A stretch of 32,332 nucleotides of DNA, from assembly GCF_003334335.1 (NCBI RefSeq), contig NZ_QOWQ01000046.1. One strand, 5' to 3'. This DNA is from Escherichia coli (GTDB taxonomy: Bacteria; Pseudomonadota; Gammaproteobacteria; Enterobacterales; Enterobacteriaceae). The position numbers were made by a program. Position 1 is the first letter of the stretch; each line of letters begins with the position of its first letter. This document shows, piece by piece, positions 12,001 to 18,000 of the stretch.

Positions 12001-15000
12001 GCAAAGCCGCATTTGAGCAGAAAATTCTGGCGCGCGTTGAGCGCATTCGCGCGGGCGACGTTTTCGATCCGCAAACTAACTTCGGCCCGCTGGTCAGCTT
12101 CCCGCATCGCGATAACGTGCTGCGCTATATCGCCAAAGGCAAAGAGGAAGGCGCGCGCGTACTGTGCGGCGGCGATGTACTGAAAGGCGATGGCTTCGAT
12201 AACGGCGCATGGGTTGCACCGACAGTGTTCACCGATTGCAGCGACGATATGACCATCGTGCGTGAAGAGATCTTCGGGCCAGTGATGTCCATTCTGACCT
12301 ACGAGTCGGAAGACGAAGTCATTCGCCGCGCTAACGATACCGACTACGGCCTGGCGGCGGGCATCGTGACAGCGGACCTGAACCGCGCGCATCGCGTCAT
12401 TCATCAGCTGGAAGCGGGTATTTGCTGGATCAACACCTGGGGCGAATCCCCGGCAGAGATGCCCGTTGGCGGCTACAAACACTCCGGCATTGGTCGCGAG
12501 AACGGCGTGATGACGCTCCAGAGTTACACCCAGGTGAAGTCCATCCAGGTTGAGATGGCTAAATTCCAGTCCATATTCTAACCAGGAGGTTTATTTGCAA
12601 TTTGACTACATCATTATTGGTGCCGGCTCAGCCGGCAACGTTCTCGCTACCCGTCTGACTGAAGATCCGAATACCTCCGTGCTGCTGCTTGAAGCGGGCG
12701 GCCCGGACTATCGCTTTGACTTCCGCACCCAGATGCCCGCTGCCCTGGCATTCCCGCTACAGGGTAAACGCTACAACTGGGCCTATGAAACGGAACCTGA
12801 ACCGTTTATGAATAACCGCCGCATGGAGTGCGGACGCGGTAAAGGTCTGGGTGGATCGTCGCTGATCAACGGCATGTGCTACATCCGTGGCAATGCGCTG
12901 GATCTCGATAACTGGGCGCAAGAACCCGGTCTGGAGAACTGGAGCTACCTCGACTGCCTGCCCTACTACCGCAAGGCCGAGACTCGCGATATGGGTGAAA
13001 ACGACTATCACGGCGGTGATGGCCCGGTGAGCGTCACTACCTCCAAACCCGGCGTCAATCCGCTGTTTGAAGCGATGATTGAAGCGGGCGTGCAGGCGGG
13101 CTACCCGCGCACGGACGATCTCAACGGTTATCAGCAGGAAGGTTTTGGTCCGATGGATCGCACCGTCACGCCGCAGGGCCGTCGCGCCAGCACCGCGCGT
13201 GGCTATCTCGATCAGGCCAAATCGCGTCCTAACCTGACCATTCGTACTCACGCTATGACCGATCACATCATTTTTGACGGCAAACGCGCGGTGGGCGTCG
13301 AATGGCTGGAAGGCGACAGCACCATCCCAACCCGCGCAACGGCCAACAAAGAAGTGCTGTTATGTGCAGGCGCGATTGCCTCACCGCAGATCCTGCAACG
13401 CTCCGGCGTCGGCAACGCTGAACTGCTGGCGGAGTTTGATATTCCGCTGGTGCATGAATTACCCGGCGTCGGCGAAAATCTTCAGGATCATCTGGAGATG
13501 TATCTGCAATATGAGTGCAAAGAACCGGTTTCCCTCTACCCTGCCCTGCAGTGGTGGAACCAGCCGAAAATCGGTGCGGAGTGGCTGTTTGGCGGCACTG
13601 GCGTTGGTGCCAGCAACCACTTTGAAGCAGGTGGATTTATTCGCAGCCGTGAGGAATTTGCGTGGCCGAATATTCAGTACCATTTCCTGCCAGTAGCGAT
13701 TAACTATAACGGCTCGAATGCAGTGAAAGAGCACGGTTTCCAGTGCCACGTCGGCTCAATGCGCTCGCCAAGCCGTGGGCATGTGCGGATTAAATCCCGC
13801 GACCCGCACCAGCATCCGGCGATTCTGTTTAACTACATGTCGCACGAGCAGGACTGGCAGGAGTTCCGCGACGCAATTCGCATCACCCGCGAGATCATGC
13901 ATCAACCCGCGCTGGATCAGTATCGTGGCCGCGAAATCAGCCCCGGTGTCGAATGCCAGACGGATGAACAGCTCGATGAGTTCGTGCGTAACCACGCCGA
14001 AACCGCCTTCCATCCGTGCGGTACCTGCAAAATGGGTTACGACGAGATGTCCGTGGTTGACGGCGAAGGCCGCGTACACGGGTTAGAAGGCCTGCGTGTG
14101 GTGGATGCGTCGATTATGCCGCAGATTATCACCGGGAATTTGAACGCCACGACAATTATGATTGGCGAGAAAATAGCGGATATGATTCGTGGACAGGAAG
14201 CGCTGCCGAGGAGCACGGCGGGATATTTTGTGGCAAATGGGATGCCGGTGAGAGCGAAAAAATGAGTCGTGATGTGAACTAACGCAGGAACCGATCAGAT
14301 TGAGAGTTACCGTTCCAGAGAGGGGGACCGAATCCTTATATAAACACTGAGGTAACTCTCATGCTTCATATCCAGTATTCATGATGCGGGCTTTTTGCTG
14401 ATATTTAACCCGAACATTCCTGATACAGACTATTAATACAACCTTATCTGCGACAGATTTTATTCTCTGGATATATTATGCGTGAACAAATCAAACAGGA
14501 TATCGATCTGATTGAGATTTTATTTTATCTGAAGAAAAAGATTCGTGTTATCCTTTTTATTATGGCTATATGTATGGCTATGGTGCTGTTGTTTCTGTAT
14601 ATCAATAAAGACAATATAAAAGTGATTTACAGCCTAAAAATAAACCAGACAACGCCAGGTATACTTGTTAGCTGTGATAGCAATAATAATTTTGCCTGTC
14701 AGACTACAATGACTGAAGATGTTATTCAGCGAATTACTACATTTTTTCACACCAGCCCAGATGTCAAGAACAGAGAAATAAGGCTGGAATGGTCAGGAGA
14801 TAAGAGAGCTTTACCAACTGCTGAAGAGGAAATATCTCGCGTGCAGGCCTCTATTATCAAATGGTATGCGTCAGAATATCATAATGGCAGGCAAGTTCTC
14901 GATGAGATACAAACGCCTTCAGCAATTAACAGTGAGCTTTATACAAAAATGATATACCTGACCAGGAACTGGTCATTGTATCCGAACGGTGATGGCTGTG

Positions 15001-18000
15001 TAACTATAAGCTCACCAGAAATAAAAAATAAATACCCTGCTGCCATTTGCCTGGCTCTGGGATTTTTTCTAAGCATTGTAATTTCTGTAATGTTTTGCCT
15101 TGTCAAAAAAATGGTAGATGAATACCTACAAAACTCTGGGCAGTAATAAACAACATTCTGATAGAGAGTGCCTGTATAAAGCTGAAGTGACAATGACCGG
15201 GAAGGGAACCCGTTTTCAGGAATGGATGCCTGTCTTTTTCACTGTAAATATCCTGGCATTGGTAATACCAGGATATTTACAGAAGAGCAGCATAACCATG
15301 ACGGAACGGGGTTAAGTCAGGTTGTCCTAAACGCTATTTTCAACCTCGTATGCCTTCTTCAGGTTTATGTCCAGACTTCATATCTCTCTCAACAATCCTC
15401 AATAATCAGATACACCGCTTTCACCGGGCCATGAACTCCGACGACTTTGATAAGCTCAATATCCGCCGTTGAACTGGGGCCGCTAATGATGTTAATGCAG
15501 GAAGGCATTCGTTCACCGGCCTGCGCTTTCTGATGCAATTTTTCTGCGAGTTGCGCTACACGCGGCAGGATAGTGCTTTTACGCAGGATAAAAAGAGAAT
15601 ATTCCGGGAGCAGGCTCAATGAACGCCCGCGCTCGGCGGCGGAAAAAAGAACCACGCCTCCCGATTCGGTTAAACCATATTCAGCATACACAACACCCAC
15701 TTTAGCCTGCTCTGCCTGCGAGATATTCTCGGCACCTTTCGCCGGATCCCAAACAACGGCATTGCATTCCTGCTGCAAACGTTCGCTAATCCCCAATTCC
15801 TCCAGCCTCGTGTCACCGCTAATCACGACCGACTGATCTCCCAGCTCTTTACACAGACGTATTGCAGCTTCTGCCGCCTTCGCCTCGCTGGTCAGCTCAC
15901 AGCGCGTCAACATAACATCGCTGGCAAACTGAATAAACGCGTCACAGCGCTGCTGTTGGTTAAGTTGGGTAAGCCGCTCGTTAGCATAGTTGTTAAGCGG
16001 CGCATCTTCTGCTTGCGGTTCAAGTCGCAGCGGGCGACCCAGTGCCTGAGCAACGTTATTCAAAAATTCGCCTCGATTATCCATTCTTTTTCTCCTGCGC
16101 CTGATGTTTCTTAAACCAACTACGGAAACTCTCTCCGTCAGCTTCAGGAAGATCGCGTGCTTCCATCCAGTCGCTAATCGCGCCAAATTTGAGTGGTGTT
16201 TTGCCGCCATTGATAAACCAGCTTGCCGCATGAGCACCGGCCATCATCCCGACTTTCCACAATCCTGGATGACTATTGGCATAAGCGAACATTTTTATCG
16301 CCCGTTGCTCTGCTTTTGCGGTGATCCCTTTTTCAGCCATCACCCGACGATGACGCAAAATCAGTTTTGACAGCGGAATACGCACCGGACACACGTTGTC
16401 ACAAGCTGTGCATAAAGAGCAGGCGTAGGGTAAATCTTTAAAATCTTTATAGCCGCCAAGTAGCGGAGAAATCACCGCACCAATTGGCCCTGGATAAATA
16501 GAGCCATATCCATGACCGCCAATATGGCGATATGCCGGACAAGTATTCATACAAGCCCCGCAGCGAATACAGCGCAGCACATCCCGAAATTCAGAGGCCA
16601 GCACCTCAGAACGCCCGTTATCGACAATAACCAGATGAAACTCTTCAGGACCATCAACGTGCCCAGCTTCGCGCGGTCCTGTCAGCCAGGTGTTGTATCC
16701 CGTCAAACGTGCACCAACGGCACTGCGCGCCAGCATGGTGATCAATACATCTACCTCGGCAAACGTGGGGGCAATACGCTCCATTCCCATCACTGCAATA
16801 TGCGTTTTAGGCAGCGTGGTACACATTCGCGCATTACCTTCATTGGTCACCAGGCATACCGAACCGGTCTCTGCCACCGCGAAATTACAGCCGGTAATAC
16901 CTATTTCAGCACTGAGGAAATCTTCGCGGATTTTTTGCCGGATGAATAAGGTCATCGCTTCAGGCGTTTCCGGCCCCTCATAGCCCAGACGTTCGTGTAG
17001 CACTCGACGGATCTGATGGCGATCTTTATGAATTGCCGGGACCACAACATGAGATGGCGGATCTTGATCCAGCTGGAGAATATATTCACCCAGATCGGTT
17101 TCAATCACCTGAATGCCAGCATCCTGCAACACATGATTGACACCAATCTCTTCGGTCACCATCGATTTAGATTTCACCACCTTCCGGGCATTTTTGCGTT
17201 GGGCAACCTGTAAAATGTAGCGGGTAGCGTCTTCTTTGGTTCTTGCAAAATAGACGTGACCGCCGTTTTGCGTCACTTTTTCTGAGAGCTGGTACAGATA
17301 AGCGTCGAGATTACTCAGAACATGATCACGTATCTGGGCGGCCCGATCGCGCCACTCCTCCCAGTGCCCCAATTCATCGACCATTTTTTGCCGATTTGCC
17401 CCAATACGCTGCTGCGCGTTTGCCACCGCTTTGCGCATGATCGGATCTTCAATTTGCTGACGGATGCGTGTCTTAAAATCTGTATTACTGGTTTTGATCG
17501 ACATCTTTATATCCTCAGCGGCTCATCAACACTTCAGCAATATGCATCACTTTGACTTTCTGCCCTTCCCGTTGTAATCGCCCACTGATGTTTAGCAGGC
17601 AACTCACGTCAGCACCAATTAAATACTCAGGGCGGACTTCCATCAGGTGCGCAACCTTTTCTTTCACCATCTCGCCGGATATTTCGGCCATTTTGACCGA
17701 GAACGTGCCGCCAAATCCGCAGCAGGTATCCTGTTCAGCAAAGGTCAACAGCTCCAGTCCACGCACATTTTTCAGCAGCGTAAGTGGCTCGTCCTTCACT
17801 CCCAGCTTACGGGCCAGGCTACAAGATGGGTGATACACCGCTCTCCCTTGCAAACTGGCACCTACATCGACTACCCCTAATTTATTAACAATAAAAGAGG
17901 TGAGATCCTGCATACGCGCGGCAACCTTTGCGGCACGTGATGCCCATTCAGGTTCATCCGCCAGATACGTCGGGTAACTTTTTACGGCATAGGTGCAAGA

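Follow-up and report, generated by a model that had tools for sequence, protein, structure and literature searches.

The class 1 polysaccharide co-polymerases (PCPs) WzzB, FepE and WzzE are proteins of 325 to 377 residues (WzzB, 326) that carry the Pfam domains PF02706 and PF13807, with two membrane helices whose ends are cytoplasmic, an EIDLxxL...K motif ahead of the first transmembrane helix (TM1), and an alpha/beta base with a hairpin. Here we analyse ykgH, one of the remaining Escherichia coli K-12 genes without an assigned role, in a 32,332-nucleotide stretch of E. coli DNA (contig NZ_QOWQ01000046.1), called the window below, to which all positions refer unless another contig is named. 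The 222-residue YkgH shares the helices, the motif and the base with its hairpin, and has WzzB, FepE and WzzE as its best structural and profile matches; however, the long coiled coil is largely missing and the sequence scores fall below the family thresholds. The genetic settings also differ, as wzzB adjoins the rfb cluster in K-12, whereas ykgH does not lie beside O-antigen or enterobacterial common antigen (ECA) genes, and one distant relative is found beside a Wzy_C/PglL-type gene. We propose that ykgH encodes a truncated, stand-alone, Wzz-like PCP acting on Wzy-dependent glycans, a combined statement that we regard as evenly poised between right and wrong. Both ykgH and the island next to it were already known; the PCP assignment, the relatives on small plasmids and the position of the PAI-X junction are added here, and the class of short stand-alone PCPs is new.

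Three further systems resemble YkgH in part. The PCP-2b proteins CpsC, CapA and Wzd, transmembrane adaptors for tyrosine kinases in Gram-positive bacteria, are of similar size (~220-250 residues), with two helices and a small external domain. These proteins work with a separate, neighbouring bacterial tyrosine kinase (BY-kinase) and have a longer, activating C-terminal tail, whereas the tail of YkgH has only 13 residues, no tyrosine kinase gene flanks ykgH, and none is annotated on four plasmids with relatives of ykgH that we inspected. Wzz(pHS-2), which we take to be FepE-like, is full-length and gives very long chains, in contrast to the ~220-residue plasmid proteins of the YkgH family. As the cargo of a 3-kb Shigella flexneri plasmid, it is a PCP that acts on the chromosomal Wzy pathway of the host (PMC12004945), and the plasmids of the YkgH family have the same layout. 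Finally, Iap of Pseudomonas phage D3 mimics Wzz and blocks the Wzy alpha polymerase (PMC12004945). As a truncated Wzz look-alike from a mobile element, Iap is a model for a short PCP acting as a competitor, although it is a 31-residue peptide with a single helix, while YkgH still has its two helices and, between them, a folded domain in the periplasm.

The closest system by position is the PAI-X/UpaB island, the immediate neighbour of ykgH, which is likewise low in G+C content (GC) and transcribed in the same direction, and whose hyxA and hyxR genes affect O-antigen length (PMC3789825). In published descriptions ykgH is treated as a flanking core gene (PMC4844996; PMC12928451), and the break lies upstream of ykgH.

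YkgH is very probably an inner-membrane protein of the PCP fold

The ykgH gene (14478-15146, + strand; ATG to TAA, RefSeq name ykgH) lies in DNA that is 99.9% identical to K-12 and many other E. coli strains. Hydropathy analysis found no more than two membrane-length segments in the protein, one at residues ~22-43 and one at ~187-210. The first, TM1 (14541-14606, + strand), is preceded at residues 8-21 by the Wzz-type motif DIDLIEILFYLKKK, placed on the cytoplasmic side, and the second, TM2 (15036-15104, + strand; residues ~187-209), is followed by the basic 13-residue tail, also placed in the cytoplasm. The N-terminus is basic as well, and by the positive-inside rule both termini are predicted to be cytoplasmic and the domain between the helices (14607-15035, + strand; residues ~44-186) periplasmic. 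An AlphaFold model (predicted local distance difference test score 84.6), which is a prediction from a 22-sequence alignment, has membrane helices at residues 22-42 and 188-220, and builds the domain as an alpha/beta base with a short helical hairpin of ~35 residues, the longest helix also having 35 residues and running from 109 to 143. Hydropathy and the model both agree with the sequence-only reading of this locus, which had described N- and C-terminal transmembrane helices around a soluble domain.

Structural comparison of the YkgH model returned almost only polysaccharide co-polymerases, namely Wzc, WzzB, WzzE and KpsE. In Foldseek searches, all 12 PDB matches at E ≤ 1e-3 were Wzc, WzzB or WzzE, and nearly all of the 798 AFDB50 matches at the same threshold were chain-length determinant or tyrosine-kinase G-rich proteins. 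Aligned to 6rbg and 8bhw, the model yields TM-scores of 0.35-0.51 over ~300-330 columns that include large gaps. The model contains the features of the PCP fold, a periplasmic alpha/beta base and an antiparallel helical hairpin. What it does not contain is the long coiled coil of the class 1 proteins, whose periplasmic domain has ~240 residues compared with ~143 in YkgH.

Sequence comparisons point in the same direction, weakly. The Pfam Wzz profile (PF02706) matches YkgH residues 8-44 at E 0.0025, and across the family it reaches E ≤ 0.1 in six of nine members and 0.001 in none. The GNVR profile (PF13807) gives E 0.56 over residues 150-212, with E ≤ 0.1 in four of the nine members and 8.1e-08 in the best. 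TIGR01006 (CpsC family) has a weak N-terminal match (E 0.0075), and the NCBIfam WzzB model scores YkgH at 12.3 bits against a cut-off of 267. While a search of the PDB with the single YkgH sequence yielded noise only (GPR156 and PsaI at E > 0.2), a profile of the family placed WzzB (6rbg, E 0.003), FepE and Wzc at the top, with matches collinear at the N-terminal motif plus TM1 (profile positions 4-45 for 6rbg) and at TM2 of WzzB and FepE. An hhalign comparison with E. coli WzzB gave 68.5% probability and E 4.6e-05 over query columns 6-90.

Together this makes YkgH very probably a two-helix inner-membrane protein of the PCP fold, which we file, on the strength of the model, as a short variant within the PCP superfamily rather than as a Wzz orthologue. 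The function had been given as unknown. That description holds in that YkgH has no assigned activity, and is superseded in that the fold and the weak sequence signals narrow it to the Wzz/PCP superfamily. An origin in a defence system or a phage was considered and is unsupported, as the PADLOC defence models gave 0 families at E ≤ 1 and a tblastn search of 50,697 phage records gave no YkgH homologue. Two minor points concern alleles. Residue 217 (15126-15128) is Leu (CTA) in the window and Gln in four other E. coli alleles and in a large protein cluster (P0002), and the YkgH copies on K-12 F-prime plasmids are 99.5% identical to the window protein.

Distant relatives are carried on small plasmids and in adhesin islets

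A HMMER search of 1.84 billion cluster representatives recovered full-length relatives of 211-229 residues with 19-31% identity to YkgH (E 3e-31 to 9e-08). Asp10, Lys21, Pro60, Cys66, Cys74, Trp129 and Tyr186 are invariant in a nine-sequence alignment, and every family gene examined has a GC of 28-42%, even on plasmids of 50% GC. Relatives occur in 41 plasmid records from Escherichia, Enterobacter, Salmonella, Citrobacter, Leclercia, Kluyvera, Klebsiella and Shigella, the plasmids being 3-9.6 kb among those listed. These plasmid mini-PCPs are ~220 residues long and 24-31% identical to YkgH; a 90%-identity cluster holds 1004 member sequences (contigs of 7.7 kb or less among the members listed), and in the 24 complete E. 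coli genomes with such a gene it is always on a plasmid of 3-5.3 kb. The four plasmids inspected fully are ColE1-type, with Rop and MobC/MbeB/MbeD genes, and on each a "GNVR domain-containing protein" is the only gene outside replication, mobilisation and transposition. As the sole cargo of a tiny plasmid, the protein must therefore act alone with host machinery, a setting that, by analogy with pHS-2, would fit a PCP acting on the chromosomal Wzy pathway. Besides pHS-2, no small plasmids with Wzz or GNVR cargo were found in the literature searched.

Other relatives lie near adhesin genes. One with 28% identity (contig L005) is 1.4 kb downstream of a gene for a 1608-residue autotransporter, and another (contig L008) follows a chaperone-usher fimbrial operon with Wzy_C/PglL-type and ScsC/DsbA-like genes. 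DNA searches of E. coli genomes returned nothing for L008 and only an integrase and riboswitch fragment for L005; these contigs are from other Enterobacterales. On Citrobacter chromosomes (L013-L016), a relative sits between two PapB-type regulators. The fimbrial operon of L008 (2867-6879 of that contig), upstream of the ScsC-like gene and the YkgH relative, also contains a gene with a reverse-transcriptase domain (RVT_1, 339 residues), its Wzy_C/PglL-type gene encodes 605 residues, and a gene for an ADP-ribosylating toxin A subunit is nearby.

ykgH is an old acquisition under purifying selection

The composition of ykgH sets it apart from its neighbours. Its GC is 36.9% and its GC at third codon positions (GC3) 36.8%, compared with 57.1/65.0 for betA, 58.3/68.9 for betB, 52.2/52.2 for ykgG and 50.2/48.7 for ykgF. 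Both values are the lowest among the 22 open reading frames (ORFs) of at least 150 codons in the window, and its rare-codon share (9.5%) is the second highest among them. The gene lies in a low-GC block of 38% at ~14370-15388. These counts confirm that ykgH has a lower GC than the bet and ykgEFG genes, as had been read from the sequence. The visible contrast with the bet genes arises in part because these are themselves unusually GC-rich for a window with a mean of 48.5%; at 56-58% GC and 64-69% GC3, the bet genes (10490-14265) are atypical as well, on the side opposite to ykgH.

Orthologues of at least 76% identity carry E. coli or Shigella names only, in a search of 5.8 billion proteins. Among 5426 complete E. 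coli genomes, the region has a match in 5221, and in 4957 at least 80% of it is present (~91-96%); a deletion mediated by IS1, in strain E41, is one of the losses. Synonymous divergence (dS) of ykgH between lineages is 0.04-0.13, similar to that of ykgG and betA. The ratio of nonsynonymous to synonymous divergence (dN/dS) is 0.15-0.3, as against 0.04-0.12 in the neighbours, and ykgH is under purifying selection, with a constraint that is relaxed but real. We assign ykgH a foreign origin because of its extreme composition and codon usage, a published H-NS entry for its upstream spacer (see below), orthologues confined to E. coli and Shigella, relatives on small plasmids and in adhesin islets, and the low GC of the whole family. 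It is an old horizontal acquisition, fixed early in E. coli and not recent. The sequence-only reading had suggested horizontal acquisition from composition; these five lines of support bear it out as an ancient event, the GC and codon usage being unlike those of the neighbours and the gene not being universal across Enterobacteriaceae. A scan of genome contigs for exact peptide words of YkgH returned a single contig, of 256 bp (L017; coverage 0.7), in a Nocardioides malaquae assembly; it holds a 100% copy of the first 79 E. coli ykgH codons and is almost certainly E. coli contamination.

The spacer upstream of ykgH is the empty PAI-X insertion site

The betA-ykgH spacer (14266-14477) is 212 bp, the length given by the sequence-only reading, which missed that it is the PAI-X site. 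The PAI-X/UpaB cluster has been reported between the "core" genes betA and ykgH (PMC4844996, PMC12928451, PMC3789825), and in other E. coli the island is ~6 kb with ipbA/fimX, hyxR, hyxA and hyxB. Alignment to island-bearing strains places the break at 14369|14370 (empty junction, 14366-14373), where sequence up to CATGCTTCAT goes with betA and sequence from ATCCAGTATTC onward goes with ykgH. The betA-proximal half (14266-14369, + strand; 46% GC) is kept beside betA in the island-bearing strains ST130 and GPEC1035, and is probably the betA 3' untranslated region (3'UTR). The other half (14370-14477, + strand; 35% GC) remains with ykgH in island-bearing strains and presumably contains the ykgH promoter. 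In many E. coli the match to the window region begins only at 14368-14370. The gene order in ST130 is betA, ipbA (= fimX/hbiF), hyxR, hyxA, hyxB, ykgH, ykgG; GPEC1035 has ipbA downstream of betA; and the O157 strains 110 and 08-3918 retain the right part of PAI-X, with a degraded hyxB adjoining ykgH. With a 101-bp probe (14320-14420, covering the right arm of an inverted repeat described below and the junction), the uninterrupted K-12-like junction with ykgH attached was found in 3264 of the 5426 complete genomes (60%). The gene is not present or absent together with fimX-hyxRAB, the presence/absence break being upstream of ykgH.

The junctions are compatible with insertion and with deletion. 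ATCC is found at the left junction in GPEC1035 and, in ST130, at the right one, a pattern that either a small duplication of the target or a deletion between short repeats could leave. Spacers of one haplotype occur both with and without the island (UTAK-2 pairs with ST130, and 042 with GPEC1035), which recombination could produce.

A promoter-like site, GCGACA-16-TATATT, lies at 14450-14477, and identical hexamers are given for ykgH in a published table (PMC3946193). The exact assignment is doubtful because no base separates the -10 hexamer from the ATG. A genomic SELEX (systematic evolution of ligands by exponential enrichment) table from the same source has an H-NS entry for the betA-ykgH spacer (PMC3946193). 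In ST130 (L004, 8964-8992), the hyxB-ykgH interval has a GC-rich hairpin, CCTGCAGGCAGCA-TAC-TGCTGCCTGCAGG, 3' of hyxB; an 85-nt segment with it folds at -37 kcal/mol (z -6.3), the hairpin is conserved in a divergent metagenomic contig (L018), and it is not in the K-12-like empty site.

ykgH is a candidate effector of the hyxA and hyxR phenotype

Phan et al. described that hyxA and hyxR mutants of the ST131 strain EC958 have more short and fewer very long O-antigen chains and lose serum resistance, with the mechanism left unexplained there (PMC3789825). In the transposon-directed insertion-site sequencing (TraDIS) data for that strain, the log fold changes (logFC) in serum were -1.58 for hyxA and -1.74 for hyxR (PMC3789825). 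A Wzz-like gene directly downstream makes ykgH a candidate effector of this phenotype, one not raised in the papers searched, although we consider it unlikely that ykgH does mediate it. Contig L018 adds a further connection. It carries a HyxB C-terminus 95% identical to that of E. coli, then the same hairpin, then a ykgH-like gene with 50-58% identity that is split in two, and beyond it an ORF for an 83-residue membrane protein and another autotransporter gene resembling hyxB. Thus ykgH can travel with hyxB outside the bet/ykgG frame, and the idea that ykgH may have arrived as part of the island stays open.

Some reported observations touch on ykgH. In the EC958 TraDIS data, ykgH (EC958_0458) has an insertion index of 0.04, compared with 0.11-0.20 in ykgG, hyxB, hyxA and hyxR, and is not classed as essential; H-NS occlusion or a fitness effect is a possible reason for the low index. 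The supplement of the AutA/AutR paper has no ykgH, wzz or fepE entry. A point mutation at MG1655 coordinate 324,865, inside ykgH, was reported in a cell-wall-deficient L-form line (PMC12160447; bioRxiv 10.1101/2024.11.06.622226). This is anecdotal; that line or its evolved variant was also changed in yjbH, rcsA and wecB, all linked to envelope glycans.

Proposed role of YkgH and competing explanations

By analogy with Wzz, YkgH would oligomerise in the inner membrane, its membrane helices would contact a Wzy-type polymerase, and through it undecaprenyl-linked glycan chains, for example O-antigen or ECA, would be shifted or disturbed in length. That YkgH acts on the chain length of Wzy-dependent glycans is a tentative proposal, to which we give somewhat less than even weight. 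HyxA or HyxR may control ykgH. Because the relatives are the sole cargo of ColE1-type plasmids and lie beside autotransporter and fimbrial genes, we speculate that such proteins could be a portable module for retuning surface-glycan length, for instance unmasking short adhesins or altering phage or serum sensitivity. In the broadest version, YkgH-type mini-PCPs would be mobile, stand-alone modulators or inhibitors of Wzy polymerases that shorten or re-set O-antigen or ECA, unmask short adhesins such as UpaB or alter phage, colicin or serum killing, with the hyxA/hyxR phenotype running through ykgH; taken whole, this is unlikely. In K-12, wbbL is split by IS5 and the cells are without O-antigen. 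Given this and the H-NS entry, ykgH in K-12-like strains is probably nearly silent, with ECA or colanic acid as the only glycans that it could affect. If the proposal is right, it would account for the changes that HyxA and HyxR cause in O-antigen length and in the serum resistance of the pandemic ST131 clone, and would provide a function for widespread "cryptic" small plasmids with a related gene as sole cargo. A natural minimal PCP without most of the supposed ruler would also help to test models of Wzz chain-length control. If YkgH has no such effect, ykgH is a commonplace foreign gene, long resident and weakly expressed, next to an island hot spot.

Several observations weigh against a role for YkgH in glycan chain length. 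No sequence match of YkgH reaches a family threshold, and the Wzz match does not extend beyond TM1 and the motif ahead of it. The structure is predicted, and oligomerisation and Wzy binding are proposed from the Wzz analogy; with ~143 periplasmic residues instead of the ~240 of WzzB, the presumed chain-measuring part may be absent. The gene lies outside any polysaccharide cluster, between betA and ykgG, and in the papers found no envelope phenotype is tied to it. Independent premature stops have arisen in the O157 lineage and in UTAK-2. In the EC958 data, ykgH insertions were neutral in serum (logFC -0.18, P 0.36; PMC3789825), so ykgH could be involved only by de-repression in hyxA and hyxR mutants, and not through loss of a needed function.

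The premature stops, along with many truncated protein clusters, would be expected if ykgH in K-12-like strains were instead a silenced, slowly decaying foreign remnant that hitch-hikes between bet and ykgEFG. The dN/dS of ykgH at 3-5 times that of its neighbours, the H-NS entry, the neutral serum result and the missing O-antigen of K-12 are in line with decay as well. However, dN/dS among intact alleles is well under 1, the gene is kept in 91-96% of genomes despite the rearrangement hot spot, and the full length, the two cysteines and Trp129 are preserved at 20-30% identity; changes in ykgH expression have also been reported in UTI89 and L-forms. We find decay an unlikely account. The position of ykgH would suit a different role, in which YkgH, encoded by the last gene of PAI-X, is an accessory factor for passage or display of the HyxB/UpaB autotransporter, and the K-12-like copies are left over from loss of fimX-hyxRAB. 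In island-bearing E. coli ykgH comes directly after hyxB and forms one continuous low-GC block with the island, in L018 the ykgH-like gene stands between HyxB and a second hyxB-like gene, and the 28%-identical relative is downstream of the 1608-residue autotransporter. Yet in ~60% of E. coli genomes ykgH is present, and under purifying selection, although the island is not, the small plasmids have no autotransporter gene, and none is near the Citrobacter relative between PapB-type regulators. We also know of no PCP-fold protein in autotransporter secretion, and rate this role as quite unlikely.

The gene might also matter chiefly for its transcript, with an Hfq-bound small RNA (sRNA) from the 3'UTR as the main product and the coding region as its carrier. 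RIL-seq (sequencing of ligated, interacting RNAs) names the 3'UTR of ykgH as a putative sRNA whose targets share a motif (PMC5145812), a predictor score is high and RNA-seq reads pile up there (PMC8175672), and the 3' region is strongly structured (z -4.6). Against this, two northern probes were negative (PMC8175672), the region has no Rfam family and no canonical terminator call, and an sRNA would leave the conservation of the protein and its plasmid copies unexplained. As the main product, an sRNA seems very unlikely; its presence would be compatible with YkgH as a stand-alone PCP.

The inverted repeat lies on the betA side of the junction

The spacer contains an inverted repeat (14301-14361, + strand) with perfect 11-bp arms, TGAGAGTTACC at 14301-14311 and GGTAACTCTCA at 14351-14361, and a 39-nt loop, within a 71-nt stem-loop. 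The sequence-only reading had noticed it as gagagttacc...ggtaactctc near 14308-14360; the repeat is real and perfect over 11 bp, and the location was slightly off, as these 10-mers are at 14302-14311 and 14351-14360. Rather than on the ykgH side, the repeat is on the betA side of the PAI-X junction, and it is retained in island-bearing strains. It begins 36 nt past the betA stop codon and ends 8 bp before the junction.

We considered two plain origins for the repeat, both unrelated to ykgH: a palindrome that arose by chance, or simply a terminator of betA. By chance about one such repeat is expected per 64 kb, or 0.5 per 32-kb window, and the arms never vary and therefore give no evidence of covariation; the position 36 nt after the betA stop codon would also suit a terminator. 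However, only 0.3% of shuffled spacers hold a perfect 11-mer repeat with a loop of 60 nt or less (p ~0.003). The whole window has seven such loci, with 20 overlapping 11-mer hits against 0.5 expected. The 71-nt stem-loop folds at -22.6 kcal/mol (z = -3.4) and its ST130 version at -23.0 kcal/mol (z = -4.2), unlike the whole betA 3' region, whose fold is ordinary (z -0.9). In five strains with both arms, all 22 arm positions are invariant although ~10 of the 39 loop positions vary, and in a sixth, E41, IS1 is inserted in the loop. The nearness of the PAI-X junction and the IS1 insertion likewise speak against chance. A terminator scan made no call at the repeat, and with a 39-nt loop and a stem followed by UGCUUCAUAUCC without a U-tract, a rho-independent terminator is ruled out. 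A chance or plain terminator origin thus appears doubtful. We regard the repeat as a real structure, for which a stem-loop in the betA 3'UTR is the simplest reading. It may also mark a site prone to breakage or recombination, and nothing connects it with the expression of ykgH. An invertible switch is ruled out because the loops of all haplotypes align collinearly, as is a dispersed element, the 101-bp probe being single-copy in nearly all genomes. A covariance-model scan of 13500-16000 with Rfam 15 gave no match up to E = 1.

The ykgH 3' region and neighbouring genes

The convergent ykgH/ykgG intergenic region (15147-15388; 242 bp) holds the RIL-seq candidate "ykgH 3'UTR", for which negative northern blots and an RNA-seq pile-up have been reported (PMC5145812, PMC8175672); the published northern probes map to ~15191-15226 on the + strand. 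Two weak hairpin and U-run motifs, CGGGAAGGGAACCCG-UUUUC and CAGGAAUGGAUGCCUG-UCUUUUU, are found at 15191-15240. They are followed at 15242-15282 by a 41-bp near-perfect palindrome with 19-nt arms (95% complementary) and a 3-nt loop, the surrounding RNA of which folds with z-scores of -4.6 (+ strand) and -4.0 (- strand). A canonical bidirectional terminator is ruled out for this palindrome, as no U-tract follows it on either strand.

Upstream of ykgH are the ORFs betB (11106-12581, + strand) and betA (12595-14265, + strand), and downstream is ykgG (15389-16084, - strand), convergent to ykgH, with ykgF beyond. Further low-GC patches (31-40%), some of them intergenic, are found in the window at 7400-8400, 18200-18800, 19400-20000, 21000-21600, 22000-22600, 28000-29400 and 30400-31200. 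Within the 3' coding end of betA, a terminator-like hairpin and T-run (CTGCCGAGGAGCACGGCGG GATATTTTGT) at 14203-14231 stops 34 nt before the stop codon.

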